Origin: an uncultured Gammaproteobacteria bacterium
Lineage (GTDB): Bacteria > Patescibacteriota > Patescibacteriia > Magasanikbacterales > GWA2-37-8
Length of the DNA stretch: 64,000 bases
Assembly: GCA_964624315.1 (NCBI GenBank)
Contig: CAZUWJ010000001.1
Location: 21,160-85,159 of the forward strand
Direction: 5' to 3'
The notes beneath the pieces were generated by a model. That model saw only the letters and a program-made list of their open reading frames with translations. It was not told the origin of the DNA and made no database searches. Made by a program: the position numbers and the translations under genes. How positions within the stretch are numbered: position 1 is the stretch's first letter; each line of letters starts with the position of its first letter. Below are positions 11,263 through 63,194 of this stretch, one piece after another.

Positions 11263-11263
11263 C

Positions 11264-17471: not shown

Positions 17472-18245
17472 TTATTCTAAAGAATCAATATAATCACTTA
17501 CTTCCCTGGCTAAACGAGTGTAAGATTTTGCTCCTTTACCACGAGGTTCATAGTGAAAAATACTTTTACCAAAACTTGGCGCCTCGGCCAAGCGAACTGT
17601 TCTAGGGATAACTGTCCTAAAAATACTGCTAGGAAAATATTTGTATAATTCATCTAAAATTTCTGATGACAAACGAGTTCTAGCATCATACATAGTCATA
17701 ACAGCCCCTAAAACTTGAAGTTCAGGTTTAATATTTTCTTTAACTAATTCAATGGTTTTCAAAAGTTGCCCCAAACCTTCCAAAGCATAATATTCAGCTT
17801 GAACTGGTATCAAAATTTTATCAGCGGCCACTAGCCCATTCAAAGTCAAAATACCTAAAGAAGGGGGACAGTCAACAATAACATAATCATAAGCATGTTT
17901 GACCTCTCCTAAAATATCAGATAATTTCATCTCTCGGCCTTCAATATTTACTAATTCTACATTAGCTCCTGCTAAATCAGCGGTAGCTGGGACAACTCTT
18001 AGACCTTCGTGAGCGGTATTAAGAACGACATCGTGCAAACGATGTTCACCCATCAAAGCATGATATAATCCCTTTTCTAATTCATTGTGTTTAATGCCTA
18101 ATCCAGAAGTAGCGTTGCCTTGGGGATCCAAATCAACTAATAAAACAAATTTGCCTTGTTCTGCCAAACCGGCTGCTAAATTTACCGCTGTAGTTGTTTT
18201 ACCTACACCACCTTTTTGGTTTACGACAGATATTATATTTGACAT
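17472..18245 (-). CDS. parA: chromosome partitioning ATPase ParA/Soj
   Basis: Deviant Walker A NQKGGVGKTTTAVNLA. Start taken at ATG 18245 (MSNII). The six-frame start at 18254 is TTG. Confidence 0.85.
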   Translation of the reverse strand: MSNIISVVNQKGGVGKTTTAVNLAAGLAEQGKFVLLVDLDPQGNATSGLGIKHNELEKGLYHALMGEHRLHDVVLNTAHEGLRVVPATADLAGANVELVNIEGREMKLSDILGEVKHAYDYVIVDCPPSLGILTLNGLVAADKILIPVQAEYYALEGLGQLLKTIELVKENIKPELQVLGAVMTMYDARTRLSSEILDELYKYFPSSIFRTVIPRTVRLAEAPSFGKSIFHYEPRGKGAKSYTRLAREVSDYIDSLE

Positions 18246-18539: not shown

Positions 18540-18634
18540 TAATGGCAAAATTAAGCAATCTGCCTCTCTGGCAGACAAAATAAATAAAAAAATTAATTTT
18601 GACTCTGAAAAATTACGTCAACTTATATTATATA

Positions 18635-18697
18635 TATTAGAACTAATGCTTCGAAAAACGTTAATAATATAAGCCGAAGTGGTGAAACTGGTAGACA
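18635..18697 (+). repeat. partial duplicate of tRNA-Leu(CAA): 27 bp of upstream sequence plus tRNA nt 1-35
   Basis: 63 bp matching 19012..19074 with two mismatches. Homology ends inside the anticodon (..CGACTCA|). It is followed by two hairpins (18698..18760) and the AAGGAG SD of the GIY-YIG gene. Confidence 0.75.
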
Positions 18698-18786
18698 CGC
18701 ACGACTCACCCCAAGCAGAGCAAAGCTCGCTTTGGGGTGTCCCAAACTGAGCTTTGCTCTAGTTGGGACAAAATCTAAGGAGAATT

Positions 18787-19038
18787 ATGTATTATGTATA
18801 TATATTAAAACTTTCAAATAATGATCTATATACTGGTAGAACAAACGACCTAAAAAGAAGGTATAATGAACATTTAAATAAAAAAGTAAAATCAACAGGT
18901 AAATATTGCCCATTAAAATTACTGCATTATGAAGCGTTTCTAGATAAAGAAGATTCTGTGAGAAGAGAAAACTATCTCAAAACTAGTACTGGCAAAAGAA
19001 TGTTAAAACTAATGCTTCGAAAAACATTACTAATATAA
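18787..19038 (+). CDS. small GIY-YIG nuclease-domain protein (URI/YhbQ-like)
   Basis: MYYVYILKLSNNDLYTGRTNDLKRRYNEH fits GIY-x10-YIG plus the conserved R and H/N. An AAGGAG SD lies 6 nt upstream, so 18787 is preferred over the track start 18763. The last 9 codons lie inside the repeat shared with 18635..18661. Confidence 0.7.
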   Translation: MYYVYILKLSNNDLYTGRTNDLKRRYNEHLNKKVKSTGKYCPLKLLHYEAFLDKEDSVRRENYLKTSTGKRMLKLMLRKTLLI

Positions 19039-19120
19039 GCCGAAGTGGTGAAACTGGTAGACACGCACGACTCAAAATCGTGTGGAGCAATCCTTGAGGG
19101 TTCGAGTCCCTCCTTCGGCA
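19039..19120 (+). tRNA. tRNA-Leu (anticodon CAA), class II with long variable arm
   Basis: Acceptor GCCGAAG/CTTCGGC, anticodon stem CACGA/TCGTG with loop CTCAAAA, long variable arm, T-arm GAGGG-TTCGAGT-CCCTC, discriminator A. Confidence 0.85.
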
Positions 19121-19190
19121 CAAGACCTACGGACGATAAACCCTCCTTCGGCACAAAACCCACTTTAACAATAGGGGTATCAATAACCTA

Positions 19191-24351: not shown

Positions 24352-24616
24352 AATCTGTTAAATAAATACTGTTAGAGAGAGCGGTATTTTACACAAAACT
24401 CTTGTTTTATGTAAAATTCCCCTCTTTATCCAAGAGGGGTTTGTTCTTTAAAATTAAGGGTTATTTAAAAAGATTTGTTGTTTTCTTCCTAGCTATTGTT
24501 CTAAGCATTTATTTACTAAATACTTATTGGTAAATGGATGTTTAGAACAATAACACTGACAGTGCTTAGTGCCTAGCTTAGGGCCTTATAAAGTAAGTAG
24601 GAACAATGAGAAGACC

Positions 24617-25186
24617 ATGAAAAATTTTAAAACCATAGCAGGAGACCTGGCCTTCCTAATGGCCATCGCGATTTTCACCGCCACCTTCATGGGGTGTGGC
24701 GATGGTATTAGCGAAATCATGACCCAAGAAGACCTAATGGAAGGTATTGTGCCTTCTTTTGGCGATGGTGTCATGACCTCCCTCCCAGAGGGTTATTATG
24801 GACAGGTGTTCGCCTGTTACGACACCCCACACACTGATCGGATTCAAGATCCCTCCAATGTCCTTTTCGAGAATAAAAACTTGAAAGGATACTACGACAA
24901 GTGGTCTGGAAAGGTTTACCTCCAGAAAAAAGACGGGGAACAAAACAAAATCGTAATACAGTGTAGAGGGGAAGAAGTGCAAGAAGTGCACTATGTTGCC
25001 GAAGCATGGGAGGGACGATCCTCCGGAAGTATGAAATGCTACTACATCGTCGACGGCTGTCGTAACACGGAAAACATCTGTTTCCGCTACGAACAAGACG
25101 GAAGCAGCTCCACCACTTTCTCTCCAACAACAGCCCGAAGGGCTGAGTTGGATAGCCTTTGTATGGGCTTCCAAAATTTCAAATAA
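24617..25186 (+). CDS. GC-rich secreted cysteine-rich lipoprotein (hypothetical), paralog A
   Basis: Start MKNFKTIAGDLAFLMAIAIFTATFMGCG (signal peptide plus lipobox). About 50% GC, 10 Cys. Antisense six-frame ORFs 24734..25174 and 24771..25130 are artefacts. Confidence 0.5.
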   Translation: MKNFKTIAGDLAFLMAIAIFTATFMGCGDGISEIMTQEDLMEGIVPSFGDGVMTSLPEGYYGQVFACYDTPHTDRIQDPSNVLFENKNLKGYYDKWSGKVYLQKKDGEQNKIVIQCRGEEVQEVHYVAEAWEGRSSGSMKCYYIVDGCRNTENICFRYEQDGSSSTTFSPTTARRAELDSLCMGFQNFK

Positions 25187-25453: not shown

Positions 25454-25891
25454 ATGCAACTCATGGCCAAAGCTACGATGTTTGCCATTCTTATTTCTAT
25501 TTTCGCAATCGCCTTTGGGGGTTGCGGACATGAAGAAACATGGGATCAAGATGCGACCCTGCCCATCCAATCCCTCTTAGAAGAAGAAGGGGGCTGGATA
25601 GGTATGGGTAGTAATGAGCTTGACCAAACGATTTATTATAAAGATGCATACTACCACTTTGAGAAGGGAGACCAGCATCTCAAGGTGAAGTGTTATCCTC
25701 TAAAATATAAGGGTAAGCTCAACCACCTCTTTAATTACCTCGTATACACGCCCAGAGGGGAAGACGAACGCGAGGAGTTTATTTTTTGTGAGGGCCTACT
25801 GCCATGTAGGTGGCAGCAACATGACTTTAACGTCCGGTTTTATCTAAAACCAGGCACAAGGGCCATCCTGGAAAATATCTGTTCAATGTAA
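25454..25891 (+). CDS. GC-rich secreted cysteine-rich lipoprotein (hypothetical), paralog B
   Basis: MQLMAKATMFAILISIFAIAFGGCG signal peptide plus lipobox. AGGAGA SD. Shares the ENIC motif and Cys spacing with paralog A. Confidence 0.5.
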   Translation: MQLMAKATMFAILISIFAIAFGGCGHEETWDQDATLPIQSLLEEEGGWIGMGSNELDQTIYYKDAYYHFEKGDQHLKVKCYPLKYKGKLNHLFNYLVYTPRGEDEREEFIFCEGLLPCRWQQHDFNVRFYLKPGTRAILENICSM

Positions 25892-25964: not shown

Positions 25965-26232
25965 CTGTCATCCTGAGGAACCGAAGGATCTAATACCACA
26001 GCTCTAGATCCTTCGATTCCTCAGGATGACAATGCCCTACCTAGAAAGATATTGTACCACAGCTCTAGATCCTTCGATTCCTCAGAATGACAATGCCCTA
26101 CCTAGAAAGATATTGTACCACAACTTTAGATTCTTCTCCGCCACCCGGCGGATCAGAATGACAACACTCCCTTTGTAGGTAGGCAAACCCGCTTTCGCGG
26201 GGATAACACTATATTTTTTGTTTAATATAAAA
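25965..26232. repeat. tandem array of MITE-like repeat units and half-units
   Basis: One full palindromic unit, then two tandem roughly 60-bp units ATGCCCTACCTAGAAAGATATTGTACCACAGCTCTAGATCCTTCGATTCCTCAG(G/A)ATGACA, then two degenerate units ending in AGAATGACA and CCCGCTTTCGCGGGGATAACA. Confidence 0.7.
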
Positions 26233-28151: not shown

Positions 28152-28880
28152 TTATTTTTTATCCACCACAGCTTTAGTGACGGCGGGATCTTCTTTTTTG
28201 TCCACTACAGCTTTCTCGACCGCTACAACTTTTTTAACCGCAGTAACTTTAGCGGGGGAGGTAGCAGGGACAGTAGCAGGCTCTCTTTTAACAAATTTTT
28301 TGAAAGGGGCTTTTCTATCACTAGGCTTATAACTTTTCTTAAAAGCCGGTCTTGCATTTTCTTCTTTTTTTAATGGAGGTCTTTTTGTTTTCTTTACTAA
28401 TTCTTCATAATTTTTAAAAGATTGCAAAGCTTTCAAAGTAGCTCTAGCAATGGAAATTTTATTTTTTGTTTTACCTAAAATTTTTGCAGAAACATTAGGT
28501 ACACCAGCTAATTCTAAAATAACACGAACAGAACCACCGGCAATAACTCCAGAACCAGTCGGGGCTGGTTTTAATAAAATTTTTGCAGCTTTAAATTTAG
28601 TTTCAACAACATGAGGAATAGTATCCTTCATTACTGGAACATGAATTATATTTTTCTTAGCTTGTTTAACAGCTTTATCAACGGCTATTTGAACATCTTT
28701 ACCTTTTGATAAACCCATGCCGACACGACCATTTTTATCACCCAAAACAACACAAGCTCTAAAACTCAACTGTTTACCACCTTTGGTAACACGAGTTACA
28801 CGAGCTAAATCTAAAATCTGGCGATTAAATTCTTCGCGTTCTTTATTACGGTTATTACTTCTGCGTGGATTTTTTTTCAT
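28152..28880 (-). CDS. rpsE: 30S ribosomal protein S5 with roughly 90-aa K/A/V-rich C-terminal extension
   Basis: S5 dsRBD plus C-terminal domain (VTRVTKGGKQLSFRACVVLGD ... GSGVIAGG). Directly followed by rplO with no rpmD (L30) between them. Confidence 0.9.
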   Translation of the reverse strand: MKKNPRRSNNRNKEREEFNRQILDLARVTRVTKGGKQLSFRACVVLGDKNGRVGMGLSKGKDVQIAVDKAVKQAKKNIIHVPVMKDTIPHVVETKFKAAKILLKPAPTGSGVIAGGSVRVILELAGVPNVSAKILGKTKNKISIARATLKALQSFKNYEELVKKTKRPPLKKEENARPAFKKSYKPSDRKAPFKKFVKREPATVPATSPAKVTAVKKVVAVEKAVVDKKEDPAVTKAVVDKK

Positions 28881-33318: not shown

Positions 33319-33783
33319 TTATTTCTTATCTTCTTTTTTAGTAGTTTTTTTAACAGCTTCTTTCTTCTCTGGATCTTTATCTTTTTTAACAGGCTCTTCC
33401 TTTTCTGAGGCTTTTTCTTTTTTAACAGCCTTTTTCTTCTCTGGAGCTTCTCCTAATAGAAAAATATTAATATGAGAAGTTCTTTTTCTTATACTAGTAG
33501 CTCTACCCTGAGCACGTGGCATCCATCTTTTTAAAATCGGGCCTTCGTCAACTGTAATTTTTGTAATTACCAAATCTTCTTTTTTCATTTCATAGTTATG
33601 TTCAGCATTAGCAATAGCTGATAACATTAATTTCAAAACTGGACGAGCGGCTTTTTTATTTAAAACACGCAAAATATTTTCAGATTCGACTACTTGTCTG
33701 CCTCTAATTAAATCAGCAACCAAACGAACCTTACGTGGGCCTATTCTTAAAAATCTTAATTTTGCTTTTACTTCTTGTTGCAT
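33319..33783 (-). CDS. rplV: 50S ribosomal protein L22 with K/E-rich C-terminal extension
   Basis: L22 core ([17 protein letters not shown] ... ) plus roughly 45-aa [10 protein letters not shown] tail. Confidence 0.85.
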
Positions 33784-35985: not shown

Positions 35986-36807
35986 TTATTTACTTTCTTC
36001 AACTGCCTCAGCCTTAGCTTCAGCTGGTTTTTCTGCCACAACTTCATCAGAAGCAGGGACTTTTTCTTCTTCTTTTTTTACCCCAGTACTAGACTCTTTG
36101 CCAGCTGGCAAATCGTCAGTGCGGGACTTCGCTTCGCTCGCTTCCTGTTTTTCTTGTTTAATTTTCAAATCGCCTTCAGCAAAAATTTCTAAATATCCTT
36201 GTTTTGCACCTGGAACAGCTCCTCTAACATACAAGGCATTATCTTCAAAATCGATTTTTATAATTTCTAAATTTTTAACAGTAACTTGATCACCACCCAT
36301 ACGTCCGCCCATTTTCATACCTTTGAAAACTTTTTGTGGACCAGTAGCACCAATTGAACCAGGCATTCTATTTTGATGTTTTTGACCATGTGATGCTGGG
36401 CCACATTTAAAATTATAACGTTTCATAACACCAGCAAAGCCTTTTCCTTTTGAAACACCAGTAATAGCGATCTTTTCACCCTCAACAAAAGCACTCAAAT
36501 CTACATAATCACCCTTTTTAAAACTATCAGTTTTTTCAACTTTAAATTCTCTTAATCTTCTAACTGGTTCCAAATCTTTCAAATGTCCTGATTTTGGTTT
36601 GTTTAAACGAAAACTTTTGGTTTTTCCGAAACCAACTTGAAGGGCATTATCTTTAATTTGTGTTATTTGACACGGACCAGCTTGAACTTTGGTAACAGCA
36701 ACTGCTTCACCATTATCTTTGAAGATCTGTGTCATGCCTAATTTTTTACCTAAAATAAATTTCATATTTTTTGCCATTGGTCCAATAGGACTTAACTTTT
36801 TTAACAA
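35986..36807 (-). CDS. rplC: 50S ribosomal protein L3 with roughly 70-aa acidic/K-rich C-terminal extension
   Basis: L3 core KKLGMTQIF ... FKCGPASHGQKHQNRMPGSIG. True start is probably an internal Met (about 36765-36777). The C-terminal tail carries the repeat shared with rpsA. Confidence 0.85.
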   Translation of the reverse strand: MLKKLSPIGPMAKNMKFILGKKLGMTQIFKDNGEAVAVTKVQAGPCQITQIKDNALQVGFGKTKSFRLNKPKSGHLKDLEPVRRLREFKVEKTDSFKKGDYVDLSAFVEGEKIAITGVSKGKGFAGVMKRYNFKCGPASHGQKHQNRMPGSIGATGPQKVFKGMKMGGRMGGDQVTVKNLEIIKIDFEDNALYVRGAVPGAKQGYLEIFAEGDLKIKQEKQEASEAKSRTDDLPAGKESSTGVKKEEEKVPASDEVVAEKPAEAKAEAVEESK

Positions 36808-37083
36808 AAAAACTAGAAGCAGTAGAATAAAATATTAGTCTCTTGCTTCTAGCCTTTTTGACGATTAATCAAAATTGGCTTATTACTTTTAAATTTCAAT
36901 AGTTTTCTCCTAAATTATTTTTCGCTTCGTACAAATGTTTTCCTACCGTTAACTAACGGGTTATGGATCTTATTTGTCAAGCAATAATAACCTTTTTTTA
37001 AAGTGCCCTAATTATAACAGAAAATAAATATACTGTCAATACTCTAAACAATGGAATTGTCCACTGTTTATTAACTTTTCAAT

Positions 37084-37431
37084 TTACATTTTTATTTCGA
37101 CATCTACGCCAGCTGGTAAACTCAAATTCATCAACGCATCAACACATTTAGGAGTAGCTTCTACAATATCTATCAATCTTTTATGGGTACGTATTTCAAA
37201 TTGTTCACGAGCAGTTTTGTGTACAAAAGTTGAACGATTAACAGTAACTTTGTTCTTTTCAGTTGGCAAAGGTACTGGACCGACTACTTTAGCACCATTT
37301 CTCAAAGCAGTGTCAATAATAGTTTTGGTAGCTTGATCAATAATACGGTTATCGTATGCTCTAATTTTAATTCTAATACGTGTACCTTCTCCTTCTTTTT
37401 CTTTTTCTTTTTTGTTATTTTCTACTGTCAT
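37084..37431 (-). CDS. rpsJ: 30S ribosomal protein S10
   Basis: [15 protein letters not shown] ... S10 core with short N-terminal K/E extension. Confidence 0.85.
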
Positions 37432-37503
37432 AGTGATTAAAGAACTTTATTAAATATCTCTGCCCCACCCGCCGTGGCGGACAGGGCAGATATATTTTTA
37501 GAT

Positions 37504-38694
37504 TTATTTAATAATTTTTGTTACAACACCAGCTCCTACTGTACGACCACCTTCGCGGATAGCAAAGTTCATATTTTCTTCCATAGCTACTGGTACAATT
37601 AATTTACACTTTAAATTTACTGTATCACCAGGCATAACCATTTCTGTGCCTTCAGGTAAAGTAACTTCACCAGTAACATCCGTAGTACGAATGTAAAACT
37701 GTGGTTTGTAGCCAGCAAAGAATGGTTTATGACGTCCACCTTCTTCTTTAGTCAAGATATAAACTTTGGTCTCAAATTCAGTATGAGGAGTAATCGTGCC
37801 AGGTTTAGCCAAAACCATACCACGTTCTACTTCATCTTTTTTTGTACCACGAAGAAGTATTCCTGCATTATCACCTGCTTGACCTTCTTTTAATTGCTTG
37901 TTAAACATTTCAATACCAGTAACAATTGTTTTTGAAGGCTCTTCTTTTAAACCTACCATTTCAACTTCGTCGTTGATATGTATAATACCACGATCAATAC
38001 GACCGGTTACCACTGTACCACGACCTTCAATTGAAAATACGTCTTCAATAGGCATTAAAAATTCTTTATCAGTAGCGCGTTCTGGTTCTGGAAAATATTC
38101 ATCCATTGTGTTTAATAATTCCATAATAGGCTTTGTAGCTTCTTCATCTTCTGGATTTTCTAAAGCTTTTAAAGCTGAACCACGAATAATAGGGGTTTTA
38201 TCTCCAGAAAATTTGTATTTTGTTAACAAATCTCTAATTTCTTCTTCAACTAAGTCAATAAGTTCTGGATCAGAAACTTGATCAACTTTATTCAAAAATA
38301 CTATAATATTAGGCACGCCTACTTGATAAGCAAGCAAGATGTGTTCACGAGTTTGAGGCATTGGACCGTCAGCAGCAGAAACTACTAAAACAGCACCGTC
38401 CATTTGGGCAGCACCAGTAATCATGTTTTTGACATAGTCAGCATGACCTGGGCAATCAACATGAGCATAATGACGTTTTTCTGTTTCATATTCTACATGA
38501 GCTGTAGAAATAGTAATACCACGCTCTTTTTCTTCTGGAGCGGAATCGATCTCATCTACATTTTTAGTTTGAGCGATCAAACCTTTTGCAGCAGCTACCT
38601 TTAAAATAGCAGCCGTAAGAGTAGTCTTACCATGGTCAACGTGGCCGATAGTACCAACGTTAACATGTGGCTTATTACGTAAAAACTCAGCCAT
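37504..38694 (-). CDS. tuf: elongation factor Tu
   Basis: [27 protein letters not shown] and NKVD G-domain motifs. 396 aa. Confidence 0.95.
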
Positions 38695-38802
38695 ACGAAC
38701 TTAGGTTATTGGCGGCTCTACTCTTGAGTGGTCAAGGCAGATTTGTAATCCAGCCGCTTTCATTTTATATATTAAAAGCACTTCAATTAAGAAGCGCTGT
38801 AT

Positions 38803-38831
38803 ATTATACAAAAAAAACTTAGATAAGTCAA
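38803..38831 (-). promoter_or_regulatory. sigma70-like promoter of tuf
   Basis: Minus strand TTGACT, 17-bp spacer, TATAAT, about 110 nt upstream of the tuf ATG. Confidence 0.45.
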
Positions 38832-38894
38832 TAGGCAAATATGGGGATAAAGTGTGCTTAAAAAGCCAACAAAACCTTTTGTTAAAAATCCTAT

Positions 38895-39431
38895 TTATTC
38901 AAGTGGCTCAATATAAAATTTATCCTCCTCAACATCGTCTTCTGGCAAGTCATCCAAAGGCTCTTCATCTATGATATTATCTACCAATGGCAAACTCTCG
39001 TCTCTTATTTCAGTTAATTCTTCTATTTTGATTTCTTCACTTTTTTCGCTATTTTTAGGCAAATTTTCCATATCAGCTACTGGTAAAATACCATCTTTAA
39101 TCTCTTCTGGCTCTACTTCTTTATTATGATCTTCAAAATCTTTACCATAATCATTGTGAATACCGTTGGCTTGTTTCCAGCGAGTAATATCATCGTCTAT
39201 CTTTTCAAATAATTCTTCTTCACTCAATCCTGTTAATGGATCTGTGCCTTCGTCCTCATCATCCTCATCATCAAAGTCAGGTTCAAAATCATAGGCATCG
39301 TCATGCATTAATTCATAATCTTCTAAATCTAAAATTGCAAAAGCCCGATCTGTTTCTTTATCTAAGACAATAAATTTATCTCCAGTTTTATCAACTAGTT
39401 TTAAGATTCTATTTAGTTGTTCATTTTTCAT
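38895..39431 (-). CDS. highly acidic hypothetical protein (D/E-rich; possible DNA-mimic)
   Basis: 178 aa with runs DFDDEDDEDEGTD, EEPLDDLPEDDVEED. No catalytic motifs. Immediately downstream of the helicase gene on the same strand. Confidence 0.3.
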   Translation of the reverse strand: MKNEQLNRILKLVDKTGDKFIVLDKETDRAFAILDLEDYELMHDDAYDFEPDFDDEDDEDEGTDPLTGLSEEELFEKIDDDITRWKQANGIHNDYGKDFEDHNKEVEPEEIKDGILPVADMENLPKNSEKSEEIKIEELTEIRDESLPLVDNIIDEEPLDDLPEDDVEEDKFYIEPLE

Positions 39432-39550
39432 ATTTTATTTTTTAAGCAATTAAATTATAGCAGTATAAGGTTTTAAGTGTCAAGAAAAAAGAAACTGACG
39501 ACGTACGTACGAACGTACGTACGACGGAAGCACGAAATCTTCCTATTTTT

Positions 39551-41272
39551 TTATTTTTTATTTATAAACAACAAACTCAACTTTATATCTTCGTAAGAAA
39601 CTTTTTCTTTTAAATATTTAAAGACTGATCGCAGTTTTATATTTCCACTTTCCAACAAATCAATCTTTCTATTTTTTATTTTAATATCCTTGACTGCTTT
39701 TTTAACTTTTTTAAAAATCTCTGCTTTTGGTTTAAAATATTCAATATCCAAATCAGGCGAAGACAGAACAATCTTTTGAATATGTTTTAAAATTGTATCT
39801 CTGGAACATCCCCTCTCTTTGACAATCTCCTCAATAGATTTCTTTTTTTCTAATAATTCTTTTGTCTCCTGCAGAGTCCCTACTTTCTTTTTTACTTTCT
39901 TTTTTTTCTTGAGCTTTACTGCGTTTCTTTTTATATCATCTTTTTTAAGTGTTCCATCATTTTTTAGAATAAACCCTTCAAACATTTTCGTCTTTTCCGA
40001 ATCACTAAACGAACCAAACTTTAAAACATTTAGATCTGAAGATTTTTTGATATGTTTATCAACTGCTGAAACTAAATTATCAACAGTCAAAGCTATATCG
40101 TTTAAACCCATCAAACGTAAACCAGAAATAGATTTTATCCTACTCAAAGCCACATAACCCTGCCCTGTTTCAAAAGTTTTTGACAAATCAATCTCGGCAG
40201 CGTCAAGCGTCATTCCCTGCGACTTATGCACTGTTAAGGCCCAAGCTAAGCGCAAAGGAACCTGTCTGATCTGAGCCACAATTGTACCTTTAGTATTTTC
40301 AAATTCCCAACTTTCTTTTTCGGCTGAGATTGTTTGACCTGAAAAAATCTTTACAACTGGAGCGCCAGTTATGCTATTAAAATCTATTATCTTGCCAAGA
40401 GTTCCATTTACATATCCTTTTTCATAATTATTTTTTATAAAAATAACTACTGCCCCTAATTTTAATTTTAATTCTTCTCTCACCAAAGAAGATTTAAATA
40501 TTTTCTCAACATTTTTCTTGGTGCCAGTATTGTCTGAAATAAATACTCTAGTTGGAGAACTAATCTTATTTAACTCTTCTTCATTTATTCTATCCACGTC
40601 TATGTTGTGAGTATATAGTTTTGTTATTTCAAAATCAGTTGGTAATTCTTTTCCCCGACACTCCTTGAATATTTCCATTGATTTAGCCGAAACTTTACCA
40701 GACCTGATTTCATCCAAAATATTTATCAACACTTCATCACTTTGCCTAAATTTTTCTTGCAAATAACAACTTCTAAAATCAACTTGTTTCCAAGATTCTG
40801 TTTGCCAAGCAAATTTTATTTCTCGTTTAGCTTTTGAAACTGGAGGAAGTTGAAAAAAATCTCCTGAAACTATGAGTTGTACCCCACCAAAAGGTTTGTC
40901 TACTTGTTTAAAACCTCGCAAGGCTCTATCCATAGTTGAAAAAATATCAGGCGAAACCATAGACACCTCATCTACTATCAAAACTTTTACTTTACTCAAA
41001 CGTTTATATAAAAATTCTTTTTGCAACAAACTGTCTATCATATACTCGTCGTAATAGTCTCTGATGCCAATGCCAAAAAAAGAATGGATAGTCATTCCTC
41101 CGATGTGAGAAGCGGCGATACCAGTTGGGGCAACAATAGAGGGTTTTATCCCCCTTTCTTTCAAATAGTCTATATACATATTTAAAAGATGCGTTTTACC
41201 TGTCCCGGCTGATCCGGTCAAAAAAACATTTCTCCCTGATTTTAATATTCCAAAAGCTATTTCTTGGTTCAT
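39551..41272 (-). CDS. PIF1/RecD-family (AAA_30) ATP-dependent DNA helicase with C-terminal HTH-like tail
   Basis: Walker A LTGSAGTGKTHLL, Walker B VLIVDEVSMV, GGVQLIVSGDFFQLPPV motif and a basic KKKKKVKKK linker. Confidence 0.6.
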   Translation of the reverse strand: MNQEIAFGILKSGRNVFLTGSAGTGKTHLLNMYIDYLKERGIKPSIVAPTGIAASHIGGMTIHSFFGIGIRDYYDEYMIDSLLQKEFLYKRLSKVKVLIVDEVSMVSPDIFSTMDRALRGFKQVDKPFGGVQLIVSGDFFQLPPVSKAKREIKFAWQTESWKQVDFRSCYLQEKFRQSDEVLINILDEIRSGKVSAKSMEIFKECRGKELPTDFEITKLYTHNIDVDRINEEELNKISSPTRVFISDNTGTKKNVEKIFKSSLVREELKLKLGAVVIFIKNNYEKGYVNGTLGKIIDFNSITGAPVVKIFSGQTISAEKESWEFENTKGTIVAQIRQVPLRLAWALTVHKSQGMTLDAAEIDLSKTFETGQGYVALSRIKSISGLRLMGLNDIALTVDNLVSAVDKHIKKSSDLNVLKFGSFSDSEKTKMFEGFILKNDGTLKKDDIKRNAVKLKKKKKVKKKVGTLQETKELLEKKKSIEEIVKERGCSRDTILKHIQKIVLSSPDLDIEYFKPKAEIFKKVKKAVKDIKIKNRKIDLLESGNIKLRSVFKYLKEKVSYEDIKLSLLFINKK

Positions 41273-41417
41273 TTGAGTTTGCTTTATTTACAAAATAGAA
41301 ACCTATTATACCCCGCCTCTCTGCCCACTGCAACTCCACCCAAGAATACGACACCAAAAACTCGGCGAACAAGTAAAAAATCGCCGAGGTGGCGATTTTT
41401 TGATTTTTTATATATCC

Positions 41418-41591
41418 TTACTTCTTCCAATCACTAACATTAAAACTTTTACCTTTTTTCTTAATCACTACCTTTTGTTTTTCACGCCATCCAAATTCTC
41501 TCATTATCTCAATTGGGATAGTTATACAATAACTATCTCCACTTTTTGTTATTTTTCGGATAAGCTTGTCCTCTAATTTTCTTCTAGACAT
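41418..41591 (-). CDS. small AbrB/MazE/SpoVT-like DNA-binding protein (57 aa; absent from the ORF track because <60 aa)
   Basis: MSRRKLEDKLIRKITKSGDSYCITIPIEIMREFGWREKQKVVIKKKGKSFNVSDWKK. Paralog of 189..374 (shared IPIE ... GW ... QKVVIKK). Confidence 0.4.
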   Translation of the reverse strand: MSRRKLEDKLIRKITKSGDSYCITIPIEIMREFGWREKQKVVIKKKGKSFNVSDWKK

Positions 41592-41707
41592 ATATTTTTT
41601 TATTTAAAAAGAAATCATGATTTAAATACTGATTTAAATCAGTATTTCTATTATATCACAAAACTACAGTGTTAAGGTAGTTTTGGGGTGTGTGATTATT
41701 TTTTGTT

Positions 41708-42655
41708 TTAATGTCTATTAATTTTAGAGATGTGTTTTCTGAATGCTTTATCCATTCTTACTGCACTATCAATTAAAAATTCATTCATTTTTCCCCAATC
41801 ATCTTTATTAGACACATCAACTCCATCTAGCTGATTTTTAATTCTAGAAGTTACATTATCCTCCATCCTTTCCCAAATTAATTCATTTCCGAAATCAGTT
41901 TCTATCTTCTCTTTTTGTGTAAAGAAATAATCAAATATTTTTTTATTTTCTTCTTGAGTACCTCTATTAATATAAATTTCTGCTCTAGCATATTTTTTAG
42001 ATATAACAATATTTACACTTACCCCACCCATACCAATTGCTATCGGAAGCCAATTTTCTGTTCCCGGGTTAACATTACTACACATTGAATTTGTTTTATT
42101 TATTTCGTTGATAAATTGTGTCCAAAATTCTTTTCTTATAATATGTCTTTGTGCGTATTCCTTCTTTTCAGCTCCAATTTGTTTAATTTTTACACTTGGC
42201 CTTTTAACAACAGTAAAAAGAGGGCCTGCTATTGGTTCATTTCCAATTTTTATCGCCTCTAGCTGTATTAAATAAAATGAAATATCATCAGGAGTAGTTT
42301 CGTTTAACCAATCAATCGCCTTCTTATGTTCCTCTACGGGATGGCTTGAAATCCAAATAGCAGTTTTTGCTTCAAGATTTGTTAAATACGTAATTATTTG
42401 TCCAAGATGCGTATGGTCTGTTTTCTCTAATTGATTTTCAATGATTACTTTATTTCCGTAGTTATCTTCTCCATACAAATCAACACGAAAAGGTCCCACA
42501 TTTTCTTCTCGTGATTCAATACTTATATCAAAACCTATAACATCATTGAGATAATCTATATTTTCTTCAAGCCATCTAGTAAAATCTTTATCTTCTTTTT
42601 TCCAAAGTTCTCGTAATGGTACTTTTTTTATTTTTCCAATTAAATTATTTTGCAT
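41708..42655 (-). CDS. DUF4268-like protein with N-terminal nuclease-like E-x-Q ... D-H-x-H-x-GQ motif
   Basis: 315 aa. FRVDLYGEDNYGNKVIIENQLEKTDHTHLGQIITYL resembles the ExQ/HLGQ motif of PD-(D/E)xK-related DUF4268 proteins. Confidence 0.35.
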   Translation of the reverse strand: MQNNLIGKIKKVPLRELWKKEDKDFTRWLEENIDYLNDVIGFDISIESREENVGPFRVDLYGEDNYGNKVIIENQLEKTDHTHLGQIITYLTNLEAKTAIWISSHPVEEHKKAIDWLNETTPDDISFYLIQLEAIKIGNEPIAGPLFTVVKRPSVKIKQIGAEKKEYAQRHIIRKEFWTQFINEINKTNSMCSNVNPGTENWLPIAIGMGGVSVNIVISKKYARAEIYINRGTQEENKKIFDYFFTQKEKIETDFGNELIWERMEDNVTSRIKNQLDGVDVSNKDDWGKMNEFLIDSAVRMDKAFRKHISKINRH

Positions 42656-42660
42656 AGTTT

Positions 42661-42768
42661 TTAGATTATATAATATAAATATTTTTTAGTTAATCTTAGT
42701 GGAATTATTTGTCCACCATATTCACCAAAATAACCTCCGGCATTTGGTTTATTATTTACTTTGTTCAT
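42661..42768 (-). pseudogene. possible relic of trpB N-terminus (35-codon ORF)
   Basis: Encodes MNKVNNKPNAGGYFGEYGGQIIP ..., which resembles the TrpB N-terminal motif YFGEFGGQYVPE. No continuation. Confidence 0.2.
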
Positions 42769-43082
42769 ATATTTTATGTTTATTTTAAATTTAAATACAA
42801 TAACACTCACAAATTACTCCGCCAACTAAAGGTTGCTTTGTTGTAATATAAATATCTCATAAATTTCAATAATAAAAACTGCCCAACATACGAAGATGAT
42901 GAGCAGTTTTTAAAAAATTACAAAACCCTACTCAGCACCGTGAGTAGCCCAACAACTGTTATTTTGTAAATTATGTAATTCCATGTATTTATTTTAGCAT
43001 AGAAAATGAAATTTGACAATAGTTTTTATTTAAAAAAAATACGAGATTAAATCCCGTATTTACATATCCTTAAAAGGGCAGT

Positions 43083-43583
43083 TTAGAGAGCTCGGTAAAC
43101 GATTTTTTCAGCGAACTCGCCATAGTCTATGCCAAGCTTAAGTACAATACGCTTGCAAAAAGCCTCCCAAACCTCATCATCCAAACCTTTTGGGCGGAGG
43201 TCGTCATATCCATCAGTCGGTTGAAATGCTTCTACCAAGGTAGCCTTGGCATACAGTTCATTTGCATCAAAACCATGGACCTCCACAAGATCGCGGAGTA
43301 TCTGTAGACTAGCCGTGGTAGAGTCTCCGTCTATATCACGGGGAATAGTCATCATGGAATCCATGACAATTACTTCAAGGTCGTTGAAATTCTTAATAAT
43401 AGATTCAATAACACCGTGATAGTCCCCCATAAAACCGATGTAACTATCCTTGTTATCGAACATATCACCCCAGCTTAACACATGGTCAGCCGGAATCTTG
43501 CCTTTGTCTTTTAACCTCTTTGCGATCTCGTTGGCCAAAAGCTCGGGAAATGGTCGTGAAGTATCCACTATCAAAATTTTCAT
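43083..43583 (-). CDS. hypothetical protein, GC-atypical orphan
   Basis: 166-aa ORF at roughly 46% GC versus about 30% in its flanks. Strong AGGAGCAGGAGAGAG SD. No recognisable motif. Confidence 0.35.
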   Translation of the reverse strand: MKILIVDTSRPFPELLANEIAKRLKDKGKIPADHVLSWGDMFDNKDSYIGFMGDYHGVIESIIKNFNDLEVIVMDSMMTIPRDIDGDSTTASLQILRDLVEVHGFDANELYAKATLVEAFQPTDGYDDLRPKGLDDEVWEAFCKRIVLKLGIDYGEFAEKIVYRAL

Positions 43584-43792
43584 GGTCTCTCTCCTGCTCC
43601 TAGGTTGGATAGGTTGGGTCTGAATAAAAGCTTTGTTTAATTATTTTTAACATAAATTGTAAATAAAGTCAATATTAATAAGAGGGGTTTTAAATAACCA
43701 AATCAAAAAACCTGCCATTACAGCAGGTTTTTTGATTTAAAGTATTTTTTCATCGTTCGCCATAGCTTTAAAGCGAAGGCGAATTTTCCATA

Positions 43793-45175
43793 CTACTTCT
43801 CTTCCCCAACACTAGACTCTTCGTCAGTGTGGGACTTCGCTTCGCTCGCTTTTACTTCAGCCTCTGGTTCTTCTACTTTAGTTTCCTCTTTTTTCTTTTT
43901 TTTCTTTTCTTTCTTCTCTTTTTTTACTTCAGCCTTTGGCTTTTCTTCCCCGACACTAGACTCTTCGCCAACTGGCAAATCGTCAGTGTGAGACTTCGCT
44001 TCGCTCACTTTTTCAACTTTCTTTTCTTTTACTTCCTTTTCTTCCTTGTCCGCAGTAACTTTAGCGGAGGTGGATTTGCCTTTTACTCCTGCCAAACGAA
44101 GACCTAATCTGTGTTCAGCTGGCTCCATTGAAACTATTTCAAAATCTAGTTCTTGTCCAATTGTGAATTCTTTATTAATATCACCCATCGGTTTATTTGA
44201 TAGTTCACTAACATGAGCTAAGCCATGGATATCACTGTCTAGCGCTACCATCAAACCAAAACCTTCAACTTTCAAAATCTTTCCTTTTACCACACTACCT
44301 ACTTTATATTTTTCTTTTACACCTTTCCAAGGATCTTCAACATTTCTTTTGATAGATAGATAAATTTTTGATTTATCAAGTTGAATAATTTGAGCTTTTA
44401 CTTTATCGCCTACTTTCAAAATATCTCTTGGGTGATCAATTCTTTGCCAAGCGATTTCTGAAATATGGACCAAACCTTCTAAACCTTCGCCGAAACGAAT
44501 AAAGGCACCAAATGAAGTTAGAGCATTTACTTCGCCCTCTACAACATCGCCTACTTTATAAGATTCTAACACAGCTTTTTGAGAATCTTCCCAAACAGCT
44601 CTCTCAGATACTATTAATTTTTCATCATTTTCATCAGCATCAATCACTTTTACTTCTACTTCTCCACCTATTAAACTTTGTAATTTTTCTAAAATTCTAT
44701 TTTTATCTCCACCTGAAACACGAGGATAGTTTTCTGGACTTAATTGAGAAACAGGCATAAAACCTGACAAAGCATCAACTTTCATCATTAAACCACCTTT
44801 ATTAGCTGCTAAAATCTTAGCTTTAACAGTCAAACCGTCTTTCATTAATTTTTTAACAGCGTCCCAAGCACGCTTAAACCCAGCAATACGGAAAGAAAGT
44901 TCCATCTCACCATTTTCATTTTCTGATTCTATTACTGTGGCTTCAGCTTCAGTACCTACTTTCAAATCTGTATATTCACTTGATTCAGCAAATAACTCTG
45001 GTCCACGAACAACACCAACAGTCATACCTTCAATATCAAGATGAATTTGACCTTTTTCAACACTAATAATATTACCTTTAACAACATCACCAACTTTTGG
45101 TAATTGGTTAAAAAAGTCTTTTAGCAGATCTTTAAAATCCTCTGCTTTTTTGTCTAATATTTTGTCTTCAGACAT
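43793..45175 (-). CDS. rpsA: 30S ribosomal protein S1 (four S1 domains) with K/E-rich repetitive C-terminal tail
   Basis: Repeated S1/OB motifs (GDVVKG ... , GDVVEGEV ... , GSVVKGKI ...). The tail contains two copies of the SEAKSHTD(D)(LPVG)EESSVGEEK repeat. Confidence 0.85.
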   Translation of the reverse strand: MSEDKILDKKAEDFKDLLKDFFNQLPKVGDVVKGNIISVEKGQIHLDIEGMTVGVVRGPELFAESSEYTDLKVGTEAEATVIESENENGEMELSFRIAGFKRAWDAVKKLMKDGLTVKAKILAANKGGLMMKVDALSGFMPVSQLSPENYPRVSGGDKNRILEKLQSLIGGEVEVKVIDADENDEKLIVSERAVWEDSQKAVLESYKVGDVVEGEVNALTSFGAFIRFGEGLEGLVHISEIAWQRIDHPRDILKVGDKVKAQIIQLDKSKIYLSIKRNVEDPWKGVKEKYKVGSVVKGKILKVEGFGLMVALDSDIHGLAHVSELSNKPMGDINKEFTIGQELDFEIVSMEPAEHRLGLRLAGVKGKSTSAKVTADKEEKEVKEKKVEKVSEAKSHTDDLPVGEESSVGEEKPKAEVKKEKKEKKKKKKEETKVEEPEAEVKASEAKSHTDEESSVGEEK

Positions 45176-49238: not shown

Positions 49239-49317
49239 TGTCATTCCCGCGAAAGCGAGAATCCAGAAACGTTTTATTGGTAAATTCTCCTGGATCCCCG
49301 CTTTCGCGGGGATGACA
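49239..49317. repeat. MITE-like palindromic repeat, CCCGCGAAAGCG-core variant
   Basis: TGTCATTCCCGCGAAAGCGAGAATCCAG ... CTGGATCCCCGCTTTCGCGGGGATGACA. Confidence 0.7.
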
Positions 49318-50750: not shown

Positions 50751-51803
50751 CTAAAACATCCTTCTCACTTTTCTCAAAAATTTGTAAAACAAATACTTTT
50801 TATTATTTAAGATAATATCCACTGTTCCTGCGTCTTCTTTATATTCTCCTCCAAACCCAAGTTTGAATCTAGTTACACCAGCGTATTGATGGTCTTTGTT
50901 ATATTCAAATTCTTTTTTAGATCCTTCGCTCCGCTCAGGATGACAAGAGGGCTCAGGATGACAAGAAAAGTCAGGATGGCAGTTAACACAAGGCGCTATC
51001 CCAAAAAAATCATAATATTTATAACCCAACTCTTTACCAAACTTTATTGCTCCCCATTGTAGTAAATTCGGAGCCATTAACTTCCTATATTCATAATCAG
51101 ACGCCCCATAAAGATAGGTAAAAGTATCGCCAAAGCCAATAAATACGCCTGTCGCCACTACCCCGTCATCTTTATAGGCATTTAACTGGTAACTCAAATC
51201 AAATTCTAAAATTTCTTTATAATGTTTTTTATCATGCAGTCTAAAACCATCTCTTTGTCCAGTTTCTTGCATCAAATTAAAAAATTTATCAAAATCTTTT
51301 TCTTTTTTTACAACCACACCTTTCCTTTCAGACAATCCAATATTATACCTAGTCTTTGAATGCATGTTTTGCAAAATTTCTTCTTCATTTTTTGATATAT
51401 CTAATACTAAAGTAGACTTAGGATTAATATCTTTAGAAAATATAAATTTAAAATCCGAAGCCTGTATTTGCTCTTTTGGTTCAATACGTAAAAATATACA
51501 CTTTTTTTCTATAAAATAATCACTCAAGGTTCTCAAAACTTCTGTTTTCTCATCATCACCATCAATAAAAACAGGGCCTTTGGGACAAAAAGCATATTTT
51601 AATCCAAAAAACAGATCACTATACACAACCTGACATTCAGCTTTTATCTCCTCACCATCTAAAACCGCTAACCTTTCCACTTTTTTACCTTCATTTTCTA
51701 AAATTTTACCCCATCTTGAGCTTTGAGAAAAAGAAGAAAAACAGCTATTTTCTACTAGCCATTCATCCCAGCTGTCATTATTTTGTATTTTTTTAACTTC
51801 CAT
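50751..51803 (-). CDS. FemAB/FemX-family peptidoglycan branch aminoacyltransferase-like protein with in-frame repeat insertion
   Basis: Fem-like N-terminus (FSQSSRWGKI). The central segment CVNCHPDFSCHPEPSCHPERSEGS is encoded by a MITE end at 50919..50981. Confidence 0.5.
   Translation of the reverse strand: MEVKKIQNNDSWDEWLVENSCFSSFSQSSRWGKILENEGKKVERLAVLDGEEIKAECQVVYSDLFFGLKYAFCPKGPVFIDGDDEKTEVLRTLSDYFIEKKCIFLRIEPKEQIQASDFKFIFSKDINPKSTLVLDISKNEEEILQNMHSKTRYNIGLSERKGVVVKKEKDFDKFFNLMQETGQRDGFRLHDKKHYKEILEFDLSYQLNAYKDDGVVATGVFIGFGDTFTYLYGASDYEYRKLMAPNLLQWGAIKFGKELGYKYYDFFGIAPCVNCHPDFSCHPEPSCHPERSEGSKKEFEYNKDHQYAGVTRFKLGFGGEYKEDAGTVDIILNNKKYLFYKFLRKVRRMF
50919..50981. repeat. MITE-like repeat fragment (three tandem CTCAGGATGACA termini) embedded in coding sequence
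   Basis: AGATCCTTCGCTCCGCTCAGGATGACA AGAGGGCTCAGGATGACA AGAAAAGTCAGGATGGCA on the plus strand. Translated in-frame on the minus strand as the CHPx repeats. Confidence 0.7.
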
Positions 51804-54541: not shown

Positions 54542-54805
54542 AAAAAAATTTAAAAATTATATTTTCATACTACTCTTATTTTTTTTTGAAGTCAACTTTT
54601 GAAAATAAAAACTAAAATTAAAAAACTGTGCATAACTTTTCATAAAACTATTTCTTTTTTTGTAAAAAAAACTTATAATACATATGTCGAAAGTTTTTTT
54701 ACATAAATGCTTGTGTGTAAAAACTTCAAGAAAATTTTGAAGATATGCCCTAGGGTATTTTCAAAATAAATTCTTGTTTTAAATCTCAACTTATTAAGGA
54801 AGGAG

Positions 54806-55042
54806 GTGAACACTATGCCACCTAAGAAAAAACCAGCAAAAAGAAAAGTAACTAAGAAAAAAGTTGCTAAAAGAAAAGTTACAAAAAGGAAACCGGCTAA
54901 AAAGAAAGCTGCTCCTAAAAGAAAAGTAGCTAAGAAAAAACCGGCAAAGAAAAAAGCTGCTAAAAGGAAACCGGCTAAAAAGAAAGCTGCTCCTAAAAGA
55001 AAAGTAGCTAAGAAAAAACCGGCTAAACGTAAGAAAAGATAA
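54806..55042 (+). CDS. histone H1-like lysine/alanine/proline-repeat nucleoid protein
   Basis: 78 aa, more than 50% K/R. Tandem KKKPAKKKAAPKRKVAKKKPAKRK repeats. GGAGGTG SD. Own terminator at 55056..55091. Confidence 0.5.
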   Translation: MNTMPPKKKPAKRKVTKKKVAKRKVTKRKPAKKKAAPKRKVAKKKPAKKKAAKRKPAKKKAAPKRKVAKKKPAKRKKR

Positions 55043-55055
55043 TCTTACAAAAATA

Positions 55056-55091
55056 AAATTACCCCGCTTTTGGCGGGGTAATTTTATTTTT
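55056..55091 (+). terminator. rho-independent terminator after the histone-like gene
   Basis: TACCCCGCTTTTGGCGGGGTA hairpin plus T-run. Confidence 0.55.
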
Positions 55092-55095
55092 GTAA

Positions 55096-59989: not shown

Positions 59990-60014
59990 AAGTTTATAAT
60001 AATTTTAATATAAC

Positions 60015-60091
60015 TGTCATCCTGAGTGAAACGAAGGATCTTAATTCCGCTACTAGATTCTTCGCTCCACTCAGAATGACAACCTGATTAT
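60015..60091. repeat. MITE-like palindromic repeat, GAACGAAGGATC-core subfamily
   Basis: TGTCATCCTGAGTGAAACGAAGGATCT ... GATTCTTCGCTCCACTCAGAATGACA between the gamma and beta subunit genes. Confidence 0.7.
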
Positions 60092-61806: not shown

Positions 61807-62569
61807 ATTTTTTTAAATCATTAGCTTTTTGTAATTCTTCATTTGTATTTATGCCACACCACTCGGCCGAATCTTTTAATTCTACCAAATTAGTTTTTTC
61901 ATTTTGTCTGTTAGCTATATCAACCATGCTTGGCAAACCATATTCTCCTAAACCCGGTATCGCTCCAATTTTTTGATAATTGGCCTCAAACCAGTCTCTC
62001 TCAAATATAAATGTGCCAGTAGAAATCTCTTTTATTTTTTTATCTTCATCACTTAAATTTTCTTTTTCTTTAATCTCAAACCTACCACCCTTTTTCAAAA
62101 CTCGTCCATATTGATGATATTGTAAATTATCAGCTATTTCTGAAATTAATAAAGTCAAAATAGCTCCGGAATCCAACTGTTTTTCTACCAAATCTTTCAA
62201 AGTATCAACTTTATAAAAAAGGCTGTCGTCCCCTCCTAACACTAAAACATGTTTTATGTTATCTCCTAAAACTTTTATACCTACATAGGCTGCGTGGGCA
62301 GTTCCTAGTCGTTCCTCTTGAAAAGCGTAAGTTACTTCACTGCCAAAATAATCAACTACCTTTTCTTTTTTAAAACCTATTACCAAACAAATTTGTTCAG
62401 GAGTCAAACCTAAACCTTTTAAAGTTTCTATAGTATAATAAACCATCGGCTTACCCGATACTTCTAACATTACTTTTGGTTTGTCCACGCAATTCAAGCG
62501 AGTCCCTTTGCCAGCTGACAAAACTACTGCCCCTAAATTTTCTAAATTAATGACTGACATACTCTGCAA
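61799..62569 (-). CDS. sugar-phosphate nucleotidyltransferase (NTP_transferase fold)
   Basis: AVVLSAGKGTRL ... VDKPK signature of GlmU/RmlA-like nucleotidyltransferases. Confidence 0.5.
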   Translation of the reverse strand: MQSMSVINLENLGAVVLSAGKGTRLNCVDKPKVMLEVSGKPMVYYTIETLKGLGLTPEQICLVIGFKKEKVVDYFGSEVTYAFQEERLGTAHAAYVGIKVLGDNIKHVLVLGGDDSLFYKVDTLKDLVEKQLDSGAILTLLISEIADNLQYHQYGRVLKKGGRFEIKEKENLSDEDKKIKEISTGTFIFERDWFEANYQKIGAIPGLGEYGLPSMVDIANRQNEKTNLVELKDSAEWCGINTNEELQKANDLKKYE

Positions 62570-63176: not shown

Positions 63177-63194
63177 ATTTATAATTCATGATTT

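Follow-up and report, generated by a model that had tools for sequence, protein, structure and literature searches.

In a 64,000-nucleotide stretch of the genome of an uncultured Magasanikbacteria strain (GenBank assembly GCA_964624315.1, contig CAZUWJ010000001.1; hereafter the window), we found a short coding repeat, here called the module, which lies once in the C-terminal tail of ribosomal protein L3 and twice in that of ribosomal protein S1, and which consists of a purine-rich box followed by a hairpin. The explanation that we favour, and to which we give somewhat better than an even chance, is that the module is a hairpin repeat of the non-autonomous kind, which has been copied as DNA from one tract coding for lysine and glutamate (K/E) to another and is translated incidentally within disordered segments of its host proteins.

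An earlier note on this DNA had described a repeat of about 90% identity shared by the L3 tail and, twice, by the S1 tail, and formal alignment bears this out at the nucleotide level: the L3 copy matches the first S1 copy (S1A) at 53/61 positions (87%) and the second (S1B) at 43/46 (93%), and S1A matches S1B at 43/46 (93%), the module lying on the coding strand (−) at all three sites (Table 1). The translations given there also agree with ours, namely ASEAKSRTDDLPAGKESSTG in L3, VSEAKSHTDDLPVGEESSVG in S1A and ASEAKSHTDEESSVG in S1B, with the refinement that S1B is a short form without 15 nt (peptide DLPVG); the copies end 31, 51 and 3 codons, respectively, before the stop codons of their genes. 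A 27-nt core pattern, allowed up to three mismatches, matched the window three times, each time at a known copy, and not at all in 100 dinucleotide shuffles, and a covariance model, run without filters over the whole window, gave no fourth copy. The GC content of the module (56–59%, compared with 33–34% locally and 33% in the genome) and the residues that it encodes (S, T, D, L, P, G, H and R) mean that K/E codon bias or low complexity, which had been raised as a trivial cause of the similarity, does not explain it. Independent contigs in ENA from this strain (L002, 100% identical to the window, and L045, 99.9%) carry identical copies, so the repeat is not an artefact of one assembly. Homologues that bear names assign the organism to Candidatus Magasanikbacteria (Patescibacteria). 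The module is a genuine dispersed repeat. The host genome covered amounts to ~72 kb (the window with contigs L053 and L054) and holds these three copies, all intragenic; no further copy was found in the ~7.5 kb past the window ends or, by covariance model, in ~660 kb of other Magasanikbacteria loci.

Table 1. Positions of the module, its host genes and other repeats (window coordinates unless another locus is named; CM, covariance-model score).
Feature	Position	Strand	Remarks
rplC (L3) coding sequence, 259 aa	35986..36765	−	called in ENA contig; PF00297
Module copy 1 (long form, 61 nt), L3 C-terminal tail	36081..36141	−	CM 94.4 bits
Copy 1 hairpin, 46 nt, imperfect	36081..36126	−	outer stem UCCCGCACUGAC / GUCUAGUACUGGGG
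Copy 1 purine-rich box GAGCGAAGCGAAG	36127..36139	−	13-mer recurs in the genome's TGTCAT-type intergenic palindromes with ≤2 mismatches
S1 protein coding sequence, 460 aa, four S1 domains	43793..45175	−	PF00575 ×4
Module copy 2 (S1A, long form), S1 tail	43948..44008	−	CM 92.4 bits
Module copy 3 (S1B, short form, 46 nt), S1 tail	43804..43849	−	CM 65.4 bits
Tail peptide, example			SHTDDLPVGEESSVGEEKPK
Untranslated hairpin (TTCGCC...TTTAAAGCT...GGCGAA), S1 stop to terminator	43756..43783	−	read from sequence
S1 intrinsic terminator hairpin	43700..43738	−	also kept in sister species
Element 2 (peptide STSAKVTADKE), start of S1 tail	44041..44073	−	repeat family D14
Element 2, S5 tail	28154-28186, 28229-28261	−	
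Element 2 in L009	10730-10768 (L3 tail), 18961-18993 (S5 tail)		
Element 2 in L008	2157-2188, 2279-2312		S1 tail, two copies
Palindromes, complete or partial, starts near	18320, 20196, 22700, 25966, 26044, 26309, 49239, 60014, 63194		
Palindrome spans	25966-26104, 49239-49317, 60014-60081, 63194-63261		
In-frame 23-aa insertion in FemAB-family gene 50751-51803	50921-50985	−	versus sister ortholog

The module begins with the purine-rich 13-nt box GAGCGAAGCGAAG and continues into an imperfect hairpin of 46 nt with 18 pairs, giving the sense-strand consensus G(Y)GAGCGAAGCGAAG-UC(Y)C(R)CACUGAC-GA-UUUGCCAG(Y)UGGC(R)AA-GA-GUCUAGU(R)(Y)(Y)GGGG. The inner stem–loop of copy 1 reads UUUGCC-AGCU-GGCAAA (a 6-bp stem and a 4-nt loop), and the hairpin has a symmetric GA/GA internal loop (tandem G.A) that is invariant across the long copies. 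Predicted hairpin energies range from −16 to −25 kcal/mol, S1A folding at −21.6 kcal/mol in the sense strand versus −14.1 in the antisense, and the fold z-scores are modest (−1.0 to −2.3). S1B is without exactly the inner hairpin, which has been removed by a 15-nt in-frame deletion whose endpoints fall in a direct repeat, CGA...CGA, as is classically seen when slippage bridges a DNA hairpin. An alternative 5′ hairpin (GYGAG...CYCRC) is perfect only in S1A, with 3–4 of its 5 pairs elsewhere, and we do not claim it; lone matches to the inner palindrome, at 62506-62522 of the window and 17718-17737 of locus L007, have dissimilar flanks and were taken as chance.

It is well supported, but not proven, that the hairpin and not the peptide is under constraint. 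In the four intact copies, counting the one in a third gene described below, 98.5% of the 65 pair cells are standard, compared with 37–55% when the 3′ partner is slid by 1–3 columns; three pairs are altered on both sides (G-C/A-U, C-G/U-A, and U-A to U-G to C-G), and every variable stem column is still paired, bar one cell. The substitutions behind these paired changes are non-synonymous (R/H, T/V, T/I, S/N, L/S and K/E), and between L3 and S1A the proportions of non-synonymous and synonymous sites that differ (pN and pS) are 0.145 and 0.136, a pN/pS of ~1. The cells that depart from Watson–Crick pairing comprise eight G.U in the sense strand versus one C.A (a G.U in the antisense), a bias which hints at a single-stranded structure of the sense strand, in mRNA or non-template DNA, with ~6 independent events and p ~0.1. 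We infer that the 16–21 encoded residues have no specific function. Pfam-A has no family for either tail, the PDB gave no match at E up to 10 for module or tail peptides, and a match to BAGE (E 0.17), obtained with a synthetic concatenation of two long module peptides, was put down to chance. In L3, a K/E/A-rich tail of 57 aa extends beyond the conserved domain and is predicted to be disordered: AlphaFold2 gives residues 206–259 a local confidence score (pLDDT) of 30–36 and no secondary structure. Against Rfam 15, the window returned tRNAs alone when the gathering threshold was applied, and the only matches over the modules with E up to 10 were chance or terminator ones.

The earlier note spoke of a conserved peptide module; in the closest relatives the same tails have none. 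In a sister species (P0122; L003–L006), whose S1 body is 95% identical and whose shared genes have 91–93% nucleotide identity, the S1 tail (70 aa) has no module, and the closest L3 relative found (P0002, L001), at a similar level of divergence, likewise has a tail without it. The SEAKS motif is also absent from the 18 L3 and 7 S1 relatives that were read and from 29 more S1 tails from related genome loci. Since the tail DNA is kept on either side of both sites while the middle differs (66 nt, QE plus the module, vs 51 nt in L001 at the L3 site; ~22 codons vs ~12 in L003, or about +30 nt, at the S1 site), the module was evidently gained after the species split.

A hidden Markov model of the three module peptides, run on 1.84 billion representative proteins, gave a single match, P0241 (E 1e-4; peptide ASEAKSRIDDSPVGEESNVG), and a degenerate DNA pattern of the hairpin, blind to frame, found the same locus and no other in Joint Genome Institute (JGI) metagenomes, in three samples. 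The copy at this locus (the L046 variant) is 84–87% identical to the window copies and lies, in the same frame as those of L3 and S1, in the K/E-rich N-terminal region of a protein of 425 aa (P0242, the full gene product) with no Pfam domain; its gene is preceded by two giant open reading frames (ORFs) and followed by PrgI-, TraC-like and VirB4-like genes. The samples that yielded contigs with this locus, two from JGI and two from ENA, are those in which the sister species occurs, and the tetranucleotide correlation of the contigs with the window is 0.98–0.99, so the locus probably belongs to the sister species or to an element that resides in it. The same ORF also contains, 129 nt upstream and in the same frame, a degenerate short copy (27 bits with the covariance model; peptide TSEVKLLIKESNKSNAGE), an older copy of the module that has decayed. 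The strict DNA pattern GCGAAGCGAAGTCNNNCACTGAC, the only one with which GTDB genomes were scanned, had no matches among GTDB species genomes or JGI metagenomes, being too strict and missing the L046 variant. A word-index search of 5.8 billion proteins with a concatenated motif gave one candidate, which was no match, and three DNA patterns and the P0241 protein gave chance matches or nothing among viral contigs.

Two further kinds of repeat in this genome bear on the module. Intergenic nested palindromes of ~55–80 nt have the form TGTCATCCTGAG[YGNARCGAAGGATCT]...CTCAGRATGACA (also TGTCATCCTGAG...CTCAGGATGACA) with the box GAGYGNARCGAAG; the TGTCATCCTGAG...CTCAGGATGACA type is one that we take to occur also in other genomes of the Candidate Phyla Radiation (CPR) and in Bacteroidota. 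The palindrome terminus motif has 18 matches in the window, compared with 0–1 per sister-species locus of 9–21 kb, and the 13-mer box common to the module and the palindromes has 9 matches against 0.62 expected (≤2 mismatches in both cases). The gyrA spacer, with one palindrome, is 178 nt long here versus 54 nt in L003. The insertion in the FemAB-family gene (Table 1), whose peptide includes CHPDFSCHPEPSCHPERSEGS / CVNCHPDFSCHPEPSCHPERSEGS..., is made of three tandem partial TGTCATCCTGAG termini and a CGGAGCGAAGGATCT arm, and clearly exemplifies the translation of repeat DNA within a conserved enzyme; translated palindromic repeats are thus a general feature of this genome. One end of the ENA contig L002 lies inside a TGTCAT repeat cluster, near window position 26015.

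The other repeat, element 2, is unrelated to the module (consensus ~TCCACCGACGTTAAAGCTGTGGTGGACAAGGAAG, peptide STDVKAVVDKE) and is common to the L3, S5 and S1 tails of several Magasanikbacteria, while being absent from the sister S1 tail. We rejected it as a conserved hairpin: its consensus fold is weak (−3.75 kcal/mol), with register shifts between copies. Copies from one genome resemble each other more than they resemble those of other genomes, which shows that tails exchange sequence even where no strong hairpin is present. A palindrome of another kind, GTTCACCCTGTTAAATCTG...GAATTTAACRGGGT (peptide KVHPVKS...EFNxVKEEK), occurs in frame twice in the S1 tail of L007 (GCA_900089805.1, FLOH01000132.1), at 11135-11195 and 11243-11306, the second copy having two inner hairpins within a 12-bp outer stem.

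Of the earlier note's two proposals, that of a mobile in-frame mini-element is the better supported, and it stands in part. The absence of the module from the sister S1 and the closest L3 relative, its recurrence in a non-ribosomal protein and the retention of hairpin pairing through non-synonymous changes all speak for it; the sites have the look of patch replacement, with no target-site duplication, and with no transposase or intergenic copy in the DNA screened, and copying by recombination is equally possible. In the explanation that we favour, the module, box and 18-pair hairpin together, would have been copied between A/G-rich tracts of unrelated genes within one Magasanikbacteria clade, and its translation would be incidental, the module having landed in frame where disordered segments tolerate any hydrophilic insert. 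It might have spread by trans-mobilisation, as do elements of the type of repetitive extragenic palindromes (REPs), MITEs (miniature transposable elements with inverted repeats) or Rickettsia palindromic elements (RPEs), which would explain the shared box, the conserved hairpin and the repeat expansion in this genome. Alternatively, it might have spread by template switching or gene conversion primed by codon-periodic GAA/AAG microhomology, possibly via fork stalling at the hairpin, which would account for junctions of the replacement type and for copies that keep to one orientation and frame. Both mechanisms would fit.

Several observations weigh against this explanation. The known total is small, five copies in three genes, and the part of the host genome examined is ~72 kb. 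At both ribosomal-protein sites 36–51 nt of ancestral tail have been replaced (by comparison with L001 and L003), with no clean interruption, and no direct repeat flanks the four intact copies as a target-site duplication would (flanks AAAA/GGAA upstream and AAGA/TAAA/TTGT downstream). Neither a REP-associated tyrosine transposase (RAYT) nor any other transposase is present among the ~30 annotated ORFs of the window, by direct or precomputed Pfam assignment. No intergenic, opposite-orientation or other-frame copy was found, though 4 of the 6 frames are open, and the three independent contexts all use the same frame. The covariation among four sequences is not significant, its observed level being reached in 84 of 500 shuffles, and repair templated by a quasi-palindrome could yield the compensatory changes without selection. 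Finally, the conservation of the hairpin and the sense-strand G.U bias could reflect a selected RNA function.

Such a function is the main rival, although we consider it rather unlikely. The hairpin would be a sense-strand RNA element, serving as an mRNA stabiliser against 3′ exonucleases, as a site of RNase III-type processing or as one of protein binding at the tandem G.A loop, and it would have been acquired for that function by the mRNAs of L3, S1 and the third gene, which is associated with a type IV secretion system (T4SS). The 98.5% pairing with its three double changes speaks for this reading, as do the excess of G.U in the sense strand, the better sense fold of S1A and the invariance of the GA/GA loop in the long copies, and REPs elsewhere are thought to act as RNA elements (PMC3733652). 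The position of the module nevertheless varies, from 3 to 51 codons before the stop codon in the ribosomal-protein genes to near the N-terminus in the third gene; the sister S1 ortholog and the closest L3 relative do without it, one copy has lost the inner hairpin and another has decayed. The modest z-scores, the absence of an Rfam family and a strand bias resting on ~6 events (p about 0.1) count on the same side. A broader scheme, more doubtful again, is that the tails and 3′ ends of the S1, L3 and S5 genes of this CPR clade might be a sink for hairpin repeats, some of them captured in frame and continually making new C-terminal sequence, and that the SEAKS module might be a functional sense RNA hairpin, common to ribosomal-protein mRNAs and the T4SS-associated gene, whose tandem G.A loop is a site of protein binding or processing. 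Somewhat less probable still is concerted evolution of the low-complexity tails, in which an arbitrary piece is moved by ectopic gene conversion or replication slippage, the hairpin is incidental and the piece has no identity as an element. The patch-replacement look of both ribosomal-protein sites, without target-site duplication, would suit this well, and so would the co-oriented, same-frame copies within GAA/AAG/AAA repeats, the sharing of the weakly structured element 2 among S5, L3 and S1 tails with greater likeness within genomes, and the flanking CCARAGGCTGAAGTAAAA that S1A and S1B have in common, which suggests local duplication. It leaves unexplained, however, how 18 pairs have stayed complementary through three double substitutions over 13–16% divergence and why the box is shared with the genome's bona fide palindromic repeat family, and it does not easily explain a non-ribosomal copy in another species. 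This rival overlaps the recombination variant of the hairpin-repeat explanation, from which it differs only on whether the hairpin matters.

The two remaining readings are much less probable. The earlier note had offered a shared binding motif or a role in surface attachment as an alternative to mobility, and we find no support for either: a functional short linear motif, SEAKSxTDDLPxGxESSxG, recruiting a ribosome-associated factor or mediating attachment, seems very improbable and is the least supported reading. All five copies are in one frame and encode a hydrophilic peptide, 2 of the 3 host proteins are ribosomal, and S-E-A-K-S and E-S-S/N-x-G are kept in the four intact copies. Yet pN/pS is ~1 between L3 and S1, the residues that vary are those which covary in the hairpin, one copy is without DLPVG, an older one has decayed, and the third host is a non-ribosomal protein; neither the sister S1 nor the closest L3 relative has the module, the profile search found one further protein in 1.84 billion and the word index none in 5.8 billion, and against the peptide also stand the lack of any Pfam, structural or PDB match and the predicted disorder of the L3 tail. 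Vertical inheritance of an old part of the tails, lost in every sampled relative, is hardly to be expected at all: K/E tails evolve fast by insertions and deletions, which would make loss easy, but the module would have had to be lost independently at two loci in the sister lineage, and in every outgroup as well, and the L3 and S1 copies are 87–93% identical despite belonging to unrelated genes.

The tails themselves are variable. The S1 tail is 101 aa long here, 70 aa in the sister species and typically 20–40 aa in other Magasanikbacteria. Between the S1 stop codon and its terminator lies an untranslated hairpin (43756..43783) whose loop, holding TTTAAAGCT, resembles element 2; the sister species is without it, the terminator there following almost directly after the S1 stop. 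Around the end of S1, ~115 nt, S1B included, have no counterpart in the sister species. The interval between S1 and a Pif1-like helicase gene also differs between the two: in the window (41708-43583) it holds DUF4268 and a 166-aa ORF of unknown kind, and in L003 (10928-16289) a methyltransferase, DpnI, MazE and others; the ENA contigs break at ~42834-42841. The C-terminal tail of L22 (gene at 33319-33783) repeats a K/E-rich unit of 12 aa, encoded by three 36-nt repeats in tandem (33346-33449, −) at the 3′ end of the gene.

Elsewhere in the window, a bAvd-like gene (3043-3390, −) and a reverse transcriptase gene (3414-4463, +) lie near a 95-nt repeat pair (1167-1261/4588-4682, 93% identical), in which 5 of the 7 differences read in the 3′ part are an A in the first copy; this locus looks like a diversity-generating retroelement. 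An origin of the modules from it was considered and rejected, as they do not resemble the 95-nt pair, and the copies differ from one another mostly by transitions and not specifically at adenines. The 15–18-nt tandem repeats at 54794-55057 (+) encode a very lysine-rich small protein (PAKRKVTKKKVAKRK...), possibly histone-like or a nucleoid protein, and the gene is followed by a perfect 23-bp terminator palindrome (55045-55095). A 75-nt duplication (18634-18708 vs 19000-19074, 95% identical) includes the 5′ half of tRNA-Leu(CAA), whose gene lies at 19039-19121; no tRNA was called at the upstream copy, possibly a pseudo tRNA or one that has been disrupted, and a 27-nt inverted repeat (18710-18767) comes after it. 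Between 24300 and 26370, two opposite-strand ORFs (24569-25186 and 25454-25891), with no Pfam or NCBIfam match, and a TGTCAT palindrome cluster separate adk/map from secY, interrupting the spc operon, with GC up to 41%.

To our knowledge, in-frame palindromic repeats are textbook matter only for Rickettsia, as RPEs, with scattered intragenic REPs elsewhere. The module would place the same phenomenon in the CPR, inside core ribosomal proteins, and would offer a concrete route by which long K/E-rich extensions of ribosomal proteins grow and diversify between sister species, through the accretion and shuffling of short nucleic-acid modules and not through selection on the peptide. It is also a warning that conserved-looking peptide motifs in disordered, metagenome-derived tails can be translated repeat DNA, and such repeats coincide with assembly breaks as well, as at the L002 end noted above. 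If the hairpin is a functional RNA, it would represent a new class of cis-element common to ribosomal-protein mRNAs.

RPEs are palindromic, occur in frame in ORFs of unrelated proteins and also in intergenic DNA and RNA genes, are about 100–150 bp long, and form about ten families with dozens of copies (Ogata et al. 2000, by way of PMC10969869 and PMC3733652); like intragenic REPs, they are palindromes inserted in frame into proteins unrelated to one another, often at a terminus (PMC10969869, PMC3733652). The module resembles RPEs in forming a hairpin (18 pairs, 98.5% of cells paired over four copies), in lying in frame in unrelated functional proteins, housekeeping ones included (L3, S1 and the 425-aa protein of the T4SS-like cluster all read through it), in its patchy distribution among close relatives, and in encoding a peptide thought to be tolerated but not required. 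It differs in its length of 46–61 nt, below that of RPEs, and in its host, a CPR bacterium rather than an alphaproteobacterial endosymbiont, where it has so far been seen only in K/E-rich disordered coding tracts; a relationship in sequence to the RPE families is not expected. Intragenic REPs of the GTAG and CGTC super-families (Di Nocera et al. 2013, PMC3733652) are likewise short imperfect palindromes, found in genes often at N- or C-termini, encoding ~20–30 aa when dimeric or grouped, with G.T(U) pairs in the stems, which are taken as a sign of transcription (PMC3733652), and not always with a dedicated transposase. The module, however, has no GTAG or CGTC 5′ tag, and is a longer composite stem–loop with an extra 5′ box; we rejected its assignment to CGTC-tagged REPs, the sole CGTC being antisense and 3′ of the inner stem (GACG beside it, of the wrong polarity). 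Moreover, all five copies of the module are intragenic and co-oriented, whereas REPs are mostly extragenic and often head-to-head dimers.

MITEs (reviewed in PMC10969869) are, like the module, non-autonomous, have inverted-repeat ends that fold into a hairpin and can make in-frame fusions, and the hairpin arms UCCCRCACUGAC / GUCUAGUGYYGGGG could serve as terminal inverted repeats, the 5′ box then lying outside the arms; the module is nevertheless 61 nt long compared with the usual 70–300 bp, and has no target-site duplication, no cognate insertion sequence and replacement-like sites. [quoted passage not shown] Nearest at hand are the TGTCATCCTGAG...CTCAGGATGACA palindromes of the same genome, which have the 13-mer box GAGCG(A/G)AGCGAAG, are absent at orthologous positions of the sister species and in one case are translated in frame; the module is without their TGTCAT termini and mirrored second arm, and its hairpin sequence is unrelated, so that common descent of the two is plausible but unproven. 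On size, terminal tags, extragenic distribution and target-site duplication, the module falls outside the RPEs, REPs and MITEs. By analogy it is best described, we suggest, as an in-frame miniature palindromic repeat of CPR ribosomal-protein tails, similar to RPEs and REPs in its apparent behaviour and probably unrelated to them in sequence.

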